DNA of 64,000 bases from a virus (Duplodnaviria; Caudoviricetes). Below, in pieces: positions 32,827 to 36,910 of the stretch. The position numbers and the translations under genes were made by a program. The stretch spans positions 127 through 64,126 of IMG/VR virus record IMGVR_UViG_3300042887_001670; one strand, written 5' to 3'. The first letter of the stretch is position 1; the number at the start of each line of letters is the position of its first letter. Under the pieces are notes generated by a model. It did not search any database. It had not been told where the DNA came from and saw nothing but the letters and a program-made list of their open reading frames with translations.

Positions 32827-33243
32827 TTAGTCCTCGTGGTTGATGGTTGTTGCGTTGTTCGCCAACATGGCGATACGATTCTCAATAAACGCAAAAATCT
32901 TTGGCGCTCGTGTCGGCAATTCAGCTAGTCCTGTGCCAAGACCGTCCGTAGGCACTACTACCGTCTTCCCTATCATCATAAACGAGTATGCGATAGTGAG
33001 TGGAAAACGGATGGCATCCTCGACAAACTCGAAATCTTCATCCTTAAAATAAGACGCTTTTTGCGTATCTGGTGCCCACTTAGTAGGCACTCCAAAACTA
33101 TTCGGGTGGCCCCGCGTGGTGCTTGCTTGCCCACCATAACCTTGGCGCCGCATATTATCGCCAAAAAGAAAAATTGTATTTGGAAATTTTTCAAGCACAT
33201 CTTGCTTAGAGATGTGTTTCTTGTAGATAAGCGTTCCAGTCAT
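32827..33243 (-). CDS. Conserved phage protein
   Basis: FLFGDN..R.G.GGQA..RG.PNSFGVPTK, DGLGTGLA. Confidence 0.6.
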   Translation of the reverse strand: MTGTLIYKKHISKQDVLEKFPNTIFLFGDNMRRQGYGGQASTTRGHPNSFGVPTKWAPDTQKASYFKDEDFEFVEDAIRFPLTIAYSFMMIGKTVVVPTDGLGTGLAELPTRAPKIFAFIENRIAMLANNATTINHED

Positions 33244-35702
33244 TTTCTATACCTTTTACCAGACCAGCCTTCGGCTTTGACGGGCAGCCCTGCCGCCCAA
33301 TCCGGCGTAGCGGCTACCAACGCTTCATACTCTGCCACGTTTCCGTAGCCCTCGTCAACCTCAGAAACCACTTCGTCATGAACTGTCAACAACACAGGGT
33401 AGTTGTGTTCCTCAAGTCGGAACATCGAGGATATCATGAGGTCGCGGGAGACAGCCTGCACCACGTTCTCGGTAAAGGTGCCAGGGCTTATAGTGGTGCG
33501 TTCCCATTTACGGGTAAGAGCGTTAACCGCGCTAATCTCTACGCCATTCTTCATCTCGCCCCAAGGTGTTTTTACCTTGCAGACGCGGGCTTCTGGGTAG
33601 TTGAGCGCACGGCCTGATGGTAAAAGCAGGCGCAGATTGCCATCGCGCATCCTGAACTTCATGTTCCGCAGTGTGACCACGCTGTTTGGGTTGCTGATTG
33701 CGCGCATCGCGGCGCGTTCCAAGGCATACCAAAGGCGTGGAATCTTAGAATAGGTTTCGCGATACAGAGTAACGACGCGCTTGTATTCTTCCTCTGGCAA
33801 AAAAATCTGGTCCTTGGCGCAAGTCAAAGCGAACTTAGGGGCACCCATGGCGTAGCCCAGACCCAATATACAATTATGAACAATTAAGGGTCCGCGATCC
33901 GTGTGTATCATGAACCTGTTGCGCGGCCCCGCATTTACAAGATCGTAGACGGGCTTCAAGGTCTTGGATTCTACGTTGCAGTTCCCCGACACTCCGCCTA
34001 TTGTTGACGTTATCTTTACGGGAGACAAACCGCAAATTTCCGGGGAGATAGCCGAGATTGTTGTCAGCCCTATCAAGCTCAAACTCAGGGACATCCCAGT
34101 TTTCAAGACTGAGCAGATACTTGAGGAATTCCCTTCGGTCTTTGATCCAAGGCTCGTAGACACGCAAACCCCGTCCACCATAGTGCGCGTATCCTGAATC
34201 ATTGGGATTGCAGCACCTGTTGATGATCGCAGATATCCGGTTAAGCAGCCGCGTCCTATGGTCATCATCGGGGCAAATATCCGCATAACCCCAAAAATTC
34301 TTTCGCGTAGTTCCGCTTTTAGTGTTGGCGCACAGCGCGCATCGCGTGCTGGTGAAATTTCTATACGAGTTATTTGGCACGGAGTATTCTCCGGGGCTGC
34401 AATCGCACTGGACAATAAGGCCCGCGGTCCCTCCCCTGACTCCAATAAAATATCCGGTGACGGTAAGTTTCCCGCTGCGGTGGCCAATGCTAGGGATAGG
34501 GAATCTCTGTCTTGCGCCAGAAACCCGGCGTCCAACCAACTCGTCCCGCACAACACTCGATGATCCGGAGTCAACCAAATCCCGCACAAAGGCAACACGC
34601 TTTGCGTGCAATTCGACAAGACTCCCAGATGCTCTACCCATTCTTCACCGTCCCAAACTTTCATATCAAAAGTGATTTGTTCTATCGGGACAAGCCCGTG
34701 GTCCGTATATACCAGAGTCCCTTCGGCAATGCACGCCTTTCCTAGTTGCCTCTCTTTAGGGTTGTCCTTTTTATTAAGAGGTTTTTTATAAACCACGCTC
34801 GCAAAGTTACAGTAAATATCATCGCCATTCGCAAATTGGTCAACAAGGTCTTGCTGCCCCGCCAACCACGCCAGAACACGGGCCTCGATAGCTGCGAAGT
34901 CTGCTGCGTAAAGCACCTTCCCTTTTGCGGCCATGACAAGGCTGCGGATTACGTCAGCAGCTACGGTCTGCACCGGGCCAAAGCACATCTCAATAAGGTC
35001 GATATCCCCTTTCTTAATATAGGGGATAGCCTCTTCAGGTTCTTTGAGAATTTCAGGGCGGGGCAAGTTCTGCAACTGAACCCCTTTGCCCGAGAAGCGT
35101 CCTGTGGACGCCCCGTGATAGAGCAAGTTGCCGTGGATGCGGCCTTCGCTATCAGCCATGTTGAGGATGGCTTGTAGCTTTTTTGTGGAGGACTTGGCGC
35201 CGATCTGGCGTATCTCTAGGACTTCGCGCACCTGTGGCGGCAGCGACGTATCTTTGAGCGCGTTAACGATGCCTTGCTTATCAAGACTCGTGAAGTGGCT
35301 GCCTTGCATGGCGAACCACTGGATCATCTTGTCGCGTTGGTTGATCGTCGTGACAAGACCATTCGTGATCTTGGCAAGACGTTCGTTCAGCCTGCCCCCC
35401 GCCTTCTCTACCAACTCTAGGGCCATGCGCGTGGTTTCAAGGTCTACGCTTATGCCCCTGTCATTGATGATTTGGTCAAGCAGATAGACTTGCCGCTCCG
35501 ATGGTGAAAGGGGGTAAAGCCTTGTCTCAGCTAGGCGTTCAGCCTCCACGTCTGTGCGGCAATATTGATATAGTTTCTCAAGGCGCGCGAGGTATTCGAT
35601 ACGCTGCTTTTCACGCGTTGCCTCTGTCTTGCCAGTGATCTCAAAATCGTCCCACCAACGGACGTGGGCGAAGTCGTCGTCGTCTTCGTCTATGTCACTC
35701 AT
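33240..35702 (-). CDS. DNA polymerase family A, C-terminal part (ExoIII + polymerase), intein-containing
   Basis: YCRTDV, HGASTGRFSG...QNLPR, DFAAIEARV (motif A), RQLGKA|CILGLGY (motif B), TVHDE (motif C). Confidence 0.93.
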   Translation of the reverse strand: MSDIDEDDDDFAHVRWWDDFEITGKTEATREKQRIEYLARLEKLYQYCRTDVEAERLAETRLYPLSPSERQVYLLDQIINDRGISVDLETTRMALELVEKAGGRLNERLAKITNGLVTTINQRDKMIQWFAMQGSHFTSLDKQGIVNALKDTSLPPQVREVLEIRQIGAKSSTKKLQAILNMADSEGRIHGNLLYHGASTGRFSGKGVQLQNLPRPEILKEPEEAIPYIKKGDIDLIEMCFGPVQTVAADVIRSLVMAAKGKVLYAADFAAIEARVLAWLAGQQDLVDQFANGDDIYCNFASVVYKKPLNKKDNPKERQLGKACIAEGTLVYTDHGLVPIEQITFDMKVWDGEEWVEHLGVLSNCTQSVLPLCGIWLTPDHRVLCGTSWLDAGFLAQDRDSLSLALATAAGNLPSPDILLESGEGPRALLSSAIAAPENTPCQITRIEISPARDARCAPTLKAELRERIFGVMRIFAPMMTIGRGCLTGYLRSSTGAAIPMIQDTRTMVDGVCVSTSLGSKTEGNSSSICSVLKTGMSLSLSLIGLTTISAISPEICGLSPVKITSTIGGVSGNCNVESKTLKPVYDLVNAGPRNRFMIHTDRGPLIVHNCILGLGYAMGAPKFALTCAKDQIFLPEEEYKRVVTLYRETYSKIPRLWYALERAAMRAISNPNSVVTLRNMKFRMRDGNLRLLLPSGRALNYPEARVCKVKTPWGEMKNGVEISAVNALTRKWERTTISPGTFTENVVQAVSRDLMISSMFRLEEHNYPVLLTVHDEVVSEVDEGYGNVAEYEALVAATPDWAAGLPVKAEGWSGKRYRK
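33873..34733 (-). mobile_element. Intein (287 aa) in PolA motif B
   Basis: Starts CIAEGTLV, block B LTPDHRV, ends VYDL..AGPRNRF....LIVHN followed by Cys; removal restores KA-CILGLGYAMG. Confidence 0.92.
33874..34641 (-). CDS. HNH homing endonuclease encoded in an alternative frame inside the intein
   Basis: GKLTV..QCDC, RC.NPN...Y.HYGGRGL.V...W, ELDRADNNLGYLPGNLRFV....N.NNRR. Confidence 0.88.
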   Translation of the reverse strand: MGRASGSLVELHAKRVAFVRDLVDSGSSSVVRDELVGRRVSGARQRFPIPSIGHRSGKLTVTGYFIGVRGGTAGLIVQCDCSPGEYSVPNNSYRNFTSTRCALCANTKSGTTRKNFWGYADICPDDDHRTRLLNRISAIINRCCNPNDSGYAHYGGRGLRVYEPWIKDRREFLKYLLSLENWDVPEFELDRADNNLGYLPGNLRFVSRKDNVNNRRSVGELQRRIQDLEARLRSCKCGAAQQVHDTHGSRTLNCS

Positions 35703-35711
35703 GCTCGTGCC

Positions 35712-36464
35712 TTAATACAGCGAAAAAGGCCCTGCTTCAAACGCTTTCTCAATCCGATCTTTTGCGATGGCAAAATATTTGTCGTCAAGTTCGATACCGA
35801 TGAACTTGCGGCCAAGGTTCATCGCCGCGACGCCGGTTGTGCCGCTGCCCATGGTGAAGTCGAGAACGGTTTCGTTGGGGTTGGTGTAGGTCTTGATAAG
35901 GTATTCCATGAGAGCGACGGGTTTTTGGGTGGGGTGCCCACAATTTTTGTCCATCCCAAAAGTCAGAATTGTTTTAGGGTATGAGTGGGTCCGTATGACT
36001 TGTAATTTCTGCTTAGTAGTTGCCCCTCCCATTAACTCTGTCCTGCTCGACTCTACGCTGGAACCTTTTTGTGGTTTAGATTTCAACGTCATCTGAGGGT
36101 CATATGTAGGCGCGTTGCTATAAAATACACTTATACTCTCATTTTGCGCCATTGGTCTTTTTTTTGCTACAAGATGCCCCCGGGCAGTTACTTTATCCCA
36201 CACCCAATCATACTTATACATTTTTATGTTACTGACACGCATGTGGGAAGAAAAAGGTTCCCCACCAAATAATACGACAGCACCGTTCTTCTTCGTGATG
36301 CGCTTCAACTGTGCCCACATCGGTTCAAACGGGATAACAGAATCCCATGAACACGCGGTCGTGCCATAAGGCGGGTCGGTCAAAACCATATCCACCGAAC
36401 CATCCGGGATTTCCTTCATACGCTCAAGGCAGTCGCCCTTGAGCAGCGTCAGCACGTCCTTCAT
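35712..36464 (-). CDS. DNA adenine/N4-cytosine methyltransferase (beta class), between the two pol halves
   Basis: GDCLE, TDPPY, HPTQKPVAL, LDFTMGSGTTG, FIGIE; ATGA overlap with pol N-fragment stop. Confidence 0.93.
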   Translation of the reverse strand: MKDVLTLLKGDCLERMKEIPDGSVDMVLTDPPYGTTACSWDSVIPFEPMWAQLKRITKKNGAVVLFGGEPFSSHMRVSNIKMYKYDWVWDKVTARGHLVAKKRPMAQNESISVFYSNAPTYDPQMTLKSKPQKGSSVESSRTELMGGATTKQKLQVIRTHSYPKTILTFGMDKNCGHPTQKPVALMEYLIKTYTNPNETVLDFTMGSGTTGVAAMNLGRKFIGIELDDKYFAIAKDRIEKAFEAGPFSLY

Positions 36465-36910
36465 ACTTTCTTCCCTTTCCTCGGCTTCGTCATTTTCAAC
36501 ATATGCCTGCTGCCTTCCATGTCCTTTTGGATCGGCAGGCTTAGTGCCTCGCCAAGCCCTTCCAATGACCGTGGAAGGGCCATGGCTGCCGCCATGGCGG
36601 CTGTGCAGAACCATTGCTCCAACGCCACAGGGGCGCAGCCATAGTGCGCTACGGCGATGTTCTTAGTAATCAGCCGTTCGAACTGCGCATTGTGCGCAAA
36701 AATCGGAAAACCCTGCCTGATATGCTTGTTCAAATCCATGGGCCACGGAAGATCAGGCGTCCATATCTGGACAGGTTCTGCGTTACGGCTATACCCCATG
36801 CACAGGATATCGGTGCTGGGGTGTTCAGCGTAGCGGTAGATGCCCACCAATTTGAGATTGGCGGTGGATTTAGTTTCGTAGTCAATGTGGTAAATGGGTG
36901 TATCTTGCAT
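36461..36910 (-). CDS. DNA polymerase A N-terminal fragment (ExoI/ExoII)
   Basis: IDYET, YAEHPST, AHNAQFER, LPRSLE...KDMEG..MLKMTKPR. Confidence 0.88.
   Translation of the reverse strand: MQDTPIYHIDYETKSTANLKLVGIYRYAEHPSTDILCMGYSRNAEPVQIWTPDLPWPMDLNKHIRQGFPIFAHNAQFERLITKNIAVAHYGCAPVALEQWFCTAAMAAAMALPRSLEGLGEALSLPIQKDMEGSRHMLKMTKPRKGKKV

Follow-up and report, generated by a model that had tools for sequence, protein, structure and literature searches.

The stretch analysed here, the window, is a 64-kb virus record from IMG/VR (IMGVR_UViG_3300042887_001670; 64,000 nt, linear, CheckV completeness 64%) that is carried by lake-water metagenomes. On its minus strand lies the gene of a family A DNA polymerase (PolA; 33240..35702), whose precursor open reading frame (ORF) of 820 amino acids stays open through an intein and matches both Pfam DNA_pol_A (E 1.8e-24) and the DNA polymerase family phrog_17 (E 1.6e-81). 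The intein (33873..34733, minus strand) is 287 residues long and runs in translation from Cys1 to His-Asn (CIAEG...LIVHN), after which comes the Cys+1 of the C-extein. It enters the polymerase between RQLGKA and C-ILGLGYAMG, a site that we take to be PolA motif B by comparison with the motif of E. coli Pol I. Nested in the same DNA and on the same strand is a second ORF (33874..34641, 255 codons plus a TAA stop), a candidate homing endonuclease gene. The start positions of the two ORFs are 1061 nt apart, a distance of 3n+2, so the nested frame is the −1 (+2) frame relative to the polymerase, and position 1 of each nested codon is position 3 of a polymerase codon. Across the 3′ junction of the intein the minus strand reads CAT AAT TGT, and the TAA of the nested ORF (33876..33874) consists of the T of CAT (His) and the AA of AAT (Asn). 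The initial annotation of the window had described the intein with its coordinates and ends, the same-strand ORF in the −1 frame, the stop buried in the His-Asn codons, and YGGRG and ELDRADNNLGYLPGNLRF motifs belonging to that ORF; translation and the ORF listing bear out every one of these points. We consider it very probable that the locus holds an intein in a phage family A DNA polymerase and that the homing nuclease is encoded apart from it, by a gene overprinted on the same strand in the −1 frame.

To place the window among its relatives, we collected homologous loci from two sources. IMG/VR contains 337 relatives, of which the best 80 were taken and one fragment was dropped, leaving 79 loci; their 78 full-length inteins form 52 clusters at 85% nucleotide identity. 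GenBank contains 152 phage records that cover at least 80% of the precursor, and seven of these were examined (Sodalis SO-1, Escherichia Pubbukkers, EBPR siphovirus 2, Vibrio 97.13, Pseudomonas MR14, Salmonella S10 and Jersey). In the 52 aligned inteins the residues C1, T55, H58 and N287 are invariant, and H286 is present in at least 90%. Both a Cys as first residue and the Thr-x-x-His of block B are thus in place, as in class 1 inteins. The +1 residue is Cys in 51/52 clusters and Ser in 1/52, and one cluster ends in Ser-Asn instead of His-Asn. A model of the in-frame intein built on the 52-sequence alignment has pLDDT (predicted local distance difference test) values of 93-98 at residues 1-90 and 260-287. 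The first of these regions belongs to the N-terminal splicing lobe (residues 1 to ~97; 34443..34733, minus strand), which is under constraint in the polymerase frame, and the second to the C-terminal splicing lobe (residues 257-287, the last two being His-Asn; 33873..33965, minus strand; pLDDT 94-97). Between them, residues 100-254 (33972..34436, minus strand) make up a stop-free linker that is predicted to be disordered, with pLDDT 30-41 and no secondary structure whatsoever. The linker matches no Pfam or NCBIfam family and has no protein-level conservation in the polymerase frame, amino-acid identity among relatives over the middle being 0.21-0.31 in the intein frame vs 0.40-0.65 in the nested frame. 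The top rows of a Foldseek search with the intein model, which match its confident parts, were all mini-inteins (DnaX, DnaB and RecA), at probability 1.00 but with E-values of only 0.009-0.03, and the Pfam Hint_2 match of the intein (E 0.093) is under threshold. Judging from its residues and its model, we read the element as an intein with a predicted Hint splicing domain of the class 1 type. Splicing of the precursor would be expected because the catalytic residues are conserved and the host gene is essential.

The two open frames, with the same offset, were present in 7/7 of the GenBank phages examined and in 79/79 of the IMG/VR loci, and a single polymerase ORF runs through the intein in the window and in every locus that is not cut by a contig end. 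The host-protein frame is continuous through the intein, with 0 stops in 52/52 clusters, while the third frame has 8-40 stops; a split intein or fractured gene is ruled out by this continuity. The nested frame is open from nt 104 of the intein or earlier to nt 797 or later in 51/52 clusters. When the nested protein of the window was resampled with synonymous codons, 5.9 stops were expected in the polymerase frame (P(0)=0.0008), and the same procedure in six relatives gave 2.5-6.2 expected stops (P(0)=0.0002-0.04). The observed number is zero in all seven lineages. Six free-standing relatives of the nuclease carry 3, 8, 7, 11, 6 and 11 stops in the corresponding frame over 142-161 codons. The openness of both frames is therefore beyond chance. 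A tblastn search of phage genomes with the nested protein returned 614 records. Among its best 30 rows, 21 fall under genes named DNA polymerase, and the other nine comprise six rows under 'hypothetical protein', one under 'endonuclease', one in an unannotated record and one under the SO-1 pair gp38/gp39, for which the row gives no product names. The nested proteins of Jerseyvirus, Dhillonvirus and SO-1 phages are 41-46% identical to that of the window, and in Sodalis SO-1 the polymerase and the nested ORF are both annotated, the latter as an intron ORF, in frames that differ by +2 as in the window. The GenBank notes of SO-1 ('contains type I self-splicing intron' and 'HNH endonuclease') would fit a group I intron that carries a homing endonuclease ORF and across which the polymerase frame is open incidentally. 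Rfam gave no match at E up to 1 in 33200..35800, which led us to reject the intron. Moreover, the polymerase frame is open in 52/52 clusters against 2.5-6 expected stops, the Cys1, TxxH and His-Asn-Cys residues are invariant or nearly so, and the ends of the insert, where purifying selection acts on the polymerase frame, are predicted to form a Hint domain. The probability that we leave to an intron is close to nil.

We calculated the ratio of nonsynonymous to synonymous differences (pN/pS) in each frame for 51 representative inteins (1275 pairs); on overlapping frames such values are confounded and should be read as comparative, not absolute. Over nt 2-200 of the intein, the intein frame had a pN/pS of 0.40 and the nested frame one of 1.36; over nt 200-300 the corresponding values were 0.87 and 0.55. 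Over nt 300-770 the intein frame rose to 1.12 and the nested frame fell to 0.38 (0.19 in the 14 closest pairs), and over nt 770-860 the values were 0.40 and 0.98. The same pattern is found in base conservation at the codon positions of seven lineages (41-54% protein identity). Conservation in the middle of the intein is lowest at nested position 3, equivalent to polymerase position 2 (0.34-0.40 vs 0.52-0.76), whereas at both intein ends it is lowest at polymerase position 3. Selection clearly switches frame between the middle and the ends. This is what the initial annotation had proposed, together with an in-frame middle devoid of a real folded domain and a nested frame conserved and uninterrupted in relatives, and all three proposals agree with our results. 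The frame-specific selection also bears on the possibility that a free-standing endonuclease gene once entered a mini-intein and that the nested ORF is what is left of it, in decay and kept open by chance or by hitch-hiking on the polymerase frame. Such a relic would explain why neither the first nor the last part of the nested ORF shows constraint of its own, the first ~36 codons having the pN/pS of 1.36 given above, and why one cluster, L055, has an internal stop at intein nt 581. It would not be expected to stay open in 51 of 52 clusters that are more than 15% apart in DNA, to keep nested-frame pN/pS at 0.38 overall and 0.19 in close pairs, to retain 18 invariant residues in 60 proteins and a confidently predicted fold, or to belong to inteins with signs of recent transfer. 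We therefore hold a relic to be highly improbable. As for L055 itself (L055:2882-3724), the sole cluster with a nested-frame stop, its intein frame is still open, and its nuclease may be in decay toward a mini-intein.

With the overprinted gene as our preferred reading, we examined the protein that it would encode. Its best PHROG match is phrog_374 'HNH endonuclease' (E 2.6e-27, residues 51-218), followed by the HNH endonuclease families phrog_3377 (E 1e-17) and phrog_2081 (E 5.4e-17); the PHROG matches are HNH or restriction endonuclease families. An AlphaFold model based on a 60-sequence alignment of the nested family, in which 18 residues are invariant, has a mean pLDDT of 86.9. Since the nested protein is predicted to fold and the in-frame middle is not, the same DNA would specify a folded protein when read in the nested frame and a tether when read in that of the intein. 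Two regions can be distinguished in the model. The first, at residues ~50-105 (34327..34494, minus strand), is a zinc ribbon or small beta-barrel with the pattern CxC...CxxC, presumed to be a DNA-binding module; its cysteines C79, C81, C101 and C104 are invariant in the 60 sequences, and its structural matches are Tudor/KOW-like barrels (Z 3.4-4.7). The Pfam CapR homology domain was found in 12/60 relatives (best E 6.3e-6, residues 51-103 of P0008), the window's own protein having no match to it. According to the available text of Barth et al. (PMC10448857), the CapR zinc finger serves phage homing endonucleases as a DNA-binding module. The second region is a nuclease-like domain at residues 113-216 (33994..34305, minus strand) in which D190-R191, Y198, N202 and N214 are invariant. 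The C-terminal half of the protein has the spacing of an HNH motif, D190-R191 ... Y198 ... N202 ... N211, N214, with N211 present in at least 90% of the 60 sequences, and from this spacing N202, N211 and N214 would be structural and metal-binding Asn residues. DSSP assigns strands to 188-191 and 203-206 and a helix to 208-214, and Y198 is positioned between the two strands. The top row of a VIA-align search with the model is PacI (3m7k_A; Z 5.1, rmsd 3.1, with 84 residues aligned within 113-216). PacI does without a catalytic His, a role taken over by a Tyr of its omega-loop (Jablonska et al., 2017, PMC5714182, in the text available), and by analogy Tyr198 of the nested protein may be the equivalent residue. 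Weaker matches to the nuclease domain (31-38% identity over 82-96 residues) occur in APSE-4 P45 (EU794056.1) and Streptococcus phage Javan101 (MK448666.1), where they fall under genes annotated DNA polymerase in unrelated phages.

A number of results on the identity of this protein weigh against our reading and have to be set beside the stop of L055 and the unconstrained first codons. No Pfam HNH family was matched at E up to 0.1 by any of the 60 members of the nested family, and NCBIfam gave none; for the nested ORF of the window, neither database returned a family of any relevance. Neither the single protein nor the 60-sequence profile picked up a nuclease in sequence searches of the PDB, the only matches being weak ones to the zinc ribbon of COX5B (E 0.24-0.97). 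Foldseek against the PDB with the nested model returned nothing at E up to 0.001, I-HmuI appearing only at rank 35 (E 2.1), and the Z of 5.1 for PacI is within the middling range. An Arg, R191, is invariant (60/60) at the position that we take, from its alignment to I-HmuI, to be that of the general-base His of HNH enzymes. The initial annotation had called the nested product an apparently intact HNH endonuclease; the kinship with HNH endonucleases stands on the PHROG matches, and the word intact was too strong in view of the Pfam result and the Arg. Because of that result, that Arg and the PacI match, the label that we find most suitable is that of a His-less, PacI-like beta-beta-alpha-metal candidate and not a canonical HNH enzyme. 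No endonuclease VII family is among the Pfam matches of the nested family.

The same observations would also suit a protein that is real and conserved yet no longer a nuclease, acting as a sequence-specific DNA binder (a regulator or a targeting factor), in which case the intein would owe its spread to ordinary recombination or to some other nuclease of the phage. CapR offers a precedent, as the DNA-binding module of a homing endonuclease that has become a repressor (PMC10448857, as far as the available text goes), and two groups of His-Me enzymes that lack both the His and the Tyr are described as probably inactive in the available part of PMC5714182. PacI, however, is the best structural match, likewise lacks the His and uses its Tyr (same source), and Y198 is invariant here. 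Six free-standing relatives, placed like homing endonuclease genes between phage genes, also read D-R, so the entire family would need to be inactive. The bounded patch of flanking sequence described below, and an intein more identical than its backbone, also fit co-conversion induced by a break. We regard a DNA binder as unlikely, though less so than any other alternative considered here, and expect the nested protein to be catalytically active.

The most likely start of the nested ORF is a putative ATG at 34639..34641 (minus strand), the only nested-frame ATG past the last upstream stop, which is formed by the last base of the Glu31 codon and the TG of the Trp32 codon. In 49 clusters with a WDGxxW motif the same position is ATG in 21, GTG in 21, TTG in 5 and CTG in 2. 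Since NTG triplets at intein nt 77, 92 and 194 are forced by the invariant codons of Trp27, Trp32 and Trp66, conservation of a start codon says little, and we did not use it as evidence. No clear Shine-Dalgarno core precedes the ATG of the window. A GGAGG-like core precedes, at a distance of 5-10 nt, an ATG located six bases downstream (nt 98) in 28/51 clusters, and in these relatives the core is made up of conserved Asp-Gly-Glu-Glu codons. With the first ~36 nested codons unconstrained, the true N-terminus may lie elsewhere. From the metatranscriptome run X20 come a 238-nt contig that falls within the intein (33952..34189) and contigs of an intein-less relative; such contigs cannot show RNA ends, strand or translation and may come from carried-over DNA, so X20 was not used as a sign of expression, and its lack of coverage over 34214..34819 was given no weight either. 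A different route to the nested protein would be −1 ribosomal frameshifting from the polymerase frame, yielding a fusion of the N-extein, a partial Hint domain and the nuclease. The nested frame is indeed the −1 frame, a G_GGA_AAC lies in register at intein nt 260 of the window, and the ATG of the window has no good ribosome-binding site. This heptamer, however, is shared by 3 clusters including the window and comes after the start of the conserved nested part (~nt 200). X_XXY_YYZ heptamers in the usable region occur in only 8/52 clusters, no position being common to more than 3, and the 44/52 clusters without one are the reason for which we rank frameshifting low. The GGAGG-like cores before the ATG at nt 98 fit internal initiation. 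All told, frameshifting seems to us very unlikely, and the nested ORF would be translated from a start of its own.

Consistent with a mobile element, comparison of intein-less with intein-plus homologs revealed both states in almost the same genome. Four IMG/VR genomes found with an N-extein search (L090, L093, L094 and L095) are 95-100% identical to the window over ~6 kb, lack the intein and read GKA-S-VLGLGY at the junction. Their differences from the window are concentrated at −66..+12 nt around the insertion point. Within this patch the intein-less alleles resemble the more distant intein-less genomes L097 and L098, and all intein-plus genomes share the other version. The N-extein flank of the patch (34734..34799, minus strand; columns −66..−1), common to intein-plus genomes, is 74-77% identical to the intein-less alleles vs 95-100% elsewhere. 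The C-extein flank (33861..33872, minus strand) spans 12 nt and includes the Cys+1 codon, which is Ser in the intein-less alleles. Moreover, in the intein-plus genome L091 the backbone is 85-93% identical to the window, and the intein plus flank 95-100%. Because the patch is bounded and the intein of L091 is more identical than its backbone, the pattern looks like recent homing with co-conversion of the flanking extein. Metagenomic contigs provide further glimpses of the two alleles. The DNA run X12 has a 959-nt contig at 33802..34760 of the window that ends ~30-70 nt outside the intein, and a contig of an RNA library ends in 16 letters identical to the intein-less junction; these contig ends show that the two alleles occur together in these lake samples. 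In the four runs compared, no joint that skips the intein was reported. Metagenomic homologues of the nested protein lie mostly on contigs of ~900-1300 nt, a length close to that of the intein. It seems that assemblies stop at the borders of the intein, which is the expected outcome when alleles with and without it are present side by side.

Two points of the same polymerase motif, four codons (12 nt) apart, harbour inteins that are homologous and whose nested nucleases are homologous too, as seen in the window (33861..33872 and 34734..34745) and in the loci L010 and L016-L088. The insertion falls between GKx and C(I/V)LGLGY in 17/52 clusters, the window among them, and between GKxxxL(G/A/S) and CG(Y/F)G in 34/52, one cluster being ambiguous. 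For 10/51 clusters the nuclease has its closest relative under a different site assignment, the ambiguous L070 being one partner in three of the ten pairs. L020 and L021, for example, are closest relatives at different sites and 76% identical. This distribution suggests repeated switching between the two insertion sites.

The open frames, the frame switch of selection, the frame-wise fold predictions, the presence or absence of the intein in near-identical genomes and the bounded flank patch are results of the present analysis, and we propose the following mechanism alongside them. The polymerase precursor would be translated straight across the insert. Some 97 N-terminal and 31 C-terminal residues of the insert would assemble into the Hint splicing domain, the ~155 residues between the lobes serving as an unstructured tether whose sole constraint is to contain no stop codon, and splicing would then take out the entire insert. 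Read one base back, the same DNA would give a protein of ~29 kDa, composed of the zinc-ribbon DNA-binding module and the His-less beta-beta-alpha-metal-like nuclease domain, and most likely translated from an internal start on the polymerase mRNA, which in the window would be ATG 34641. This nuclease would cut intein-less polymerase alleles near the insertion site, and repair would copy in the intein along with its flanks, ~66 nt upstream and 12 nt downstream. We further suggest, as a possibility that falls somewhat short of being probable, that the overprinted state is not a brief intermediate toward a fused intein-nuclease but a stable, successful and long-lived one. Under this proposal ~700 nt would have remained double-coding in at least 52 lineages, in an element that still homes with ~80 nt of flank, has moved repeatedly between two points of PolA motif B 12 nt apart and carries a His-less, PacI-like nuclease made apart from the polymerase.

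The initial annotation had surmised that alternative-frame intein nucleases may have been reported in a few phages. This holds for one report, on actinophages; a second case from 2025 concerns a methylase insert that does not splice. In its available text, the preprint of Gosselin, Arsenault and Gogarten (bioRxiv 10.1101/2025.01.02.630785) describes actinophage inteins with a same-strand, frame-3, endonuclease VII-like nuclease, calls them rare and proposes that a free-standing endonuclease gene invaded the intein. As far as that text goes, those inteins are like ours in having the splicing domain in the extein frame, the nuclease as a second same-strand ORF between the splicing blocks, and a middle without recognisable structure. 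There, however, it is an endonuclease VII-like enzyme that the second same-strand ORF encodes, HNH nucleases are found in frame with their inteins, and the host genes, DNA polymerase III alpha among them, are those of actinophages. Here, a His-less HNH-like nuclease with a zinc ribbon resides in PolA, in uncultured lake phages and relatives with Gram-negative hosts (Jerseyvirus, Dhillonvirus, Vibrio and Pseudomonas phages). In the methylase case, ShiLan, a stop-free insert in a host gene likewise hides an HNH gene in the third frame (2025 Genes paper, PMC11855218). According to the available text, that insert has no detectable splicing domain and is thought to remain in the protein as a loop, whereas the Hint blocks of the present family are both conserved and selected. 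A separate nuclease gene between the splicing parts, in an essential host gene, is also a feature of split inteins in fractured genes (Dassa et al., 2009, PMC2677866); there, as the available part of that paper has it, the host ORF is broken and its halves trans-splice, unlike the continuous frame of the 52 clusters here. PacI (His-Me finger group 20, PDB 3m7k), again on the partial text of its source, likewise has no general-base His, and the invariant Tyr198 may correspond to the Tyr of its omega-loop. Unlike the nested protein, it is a homodimeric restriction enzyme, and the two have no detectable sequence similarity.

The 'intein-containing DNA polymerase precursor' genes of Jerseyvirus and Dhillonvirus phages and gp38/gp39 of SO-1 belong to the same intein family and have the same nested ORF and frame offset; what is annotated in their records is either the intein or, for SO-1, the nested ORF under the label of an intron ORF. 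Among the freely accessible main texts searched, we found no paper that describes coding in two frames for the PolA inteins of these phages or their relatives. PMC8425127, in its available text, mentions inteins and homing endonucleases only in general. The arrangement as such has thus been known since 2025, and what the present family adds, in comparison with the main text of the preprint, is a different nuclease family and a different host gene. It also adds far more members than the known cases, with its 337 IMG/VR relatives and 152 GenBank phage records, and quantitative evidence of frame-specific selection and of recent homing.

Around the polymerase gene we made some additional observations. 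A search of phages for distant DNA matches to the polymerase gene produced two short matches only. In the region of 35712..36614 and 36461..36910 (minus strand), a methyltransferase gene lies between the ORF of the proofreading domain and the polymerase ORF and is a variable insert. It is missing from the near-identical genomes L090, L093 and L095 and from L091, and the version in L094 is 57-63% similar. Contigs of three DNA runs depart from the window at 35693. In L006 and L007, which are without the methylase, the exonuclease and polymerase ORFs are still in different frames, with an overlap of ~48 nt, so the polymerase is split or frameshifted independently of the methylase insert. In Salmonella phage S10 (NC_073193.1; locus L014:4639-5633), the annotation 'putative intein containing helicase precursor' belongs to a gene that follows the polymerase with the intein at a distance of three genes downstream.

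In textbook inteins a single polypeptide both splices and cuts DNA. At the locus studied here the two tasks would be divided between two reading frames of one stretch of DNA, a division kept across many phage lineages and apparently old, widespread and still mobile. It speaks directly for the view that inteins and their nucleases were at first independent selfish elements, and it provides a natural case of long-term overprinting in which one frame is selected for protein sequence and the other only for openness. It also accounts for the inconsistent annotations of these polymerase genes, which go by 'intron', 'endonuclease', split polymerase or 'hypothetical protein'. Next to PacI, the nuclease may be a second case of a beta-beta-alpha-metal enzyme able to function with no catalytic histidine. 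Finally, with close relatives in cultured Jerseyvirus and Dhillonvirus phages, the splicing, internal initiation, cleavage and homing proposed here are open to ordinary phage genetics. If the overprinted design is indeed a stable one, the family would be a natural model of nuclease acquisition, 'splicing first, nuclease invades later', in culturable phages of E. coli and Salmonella.

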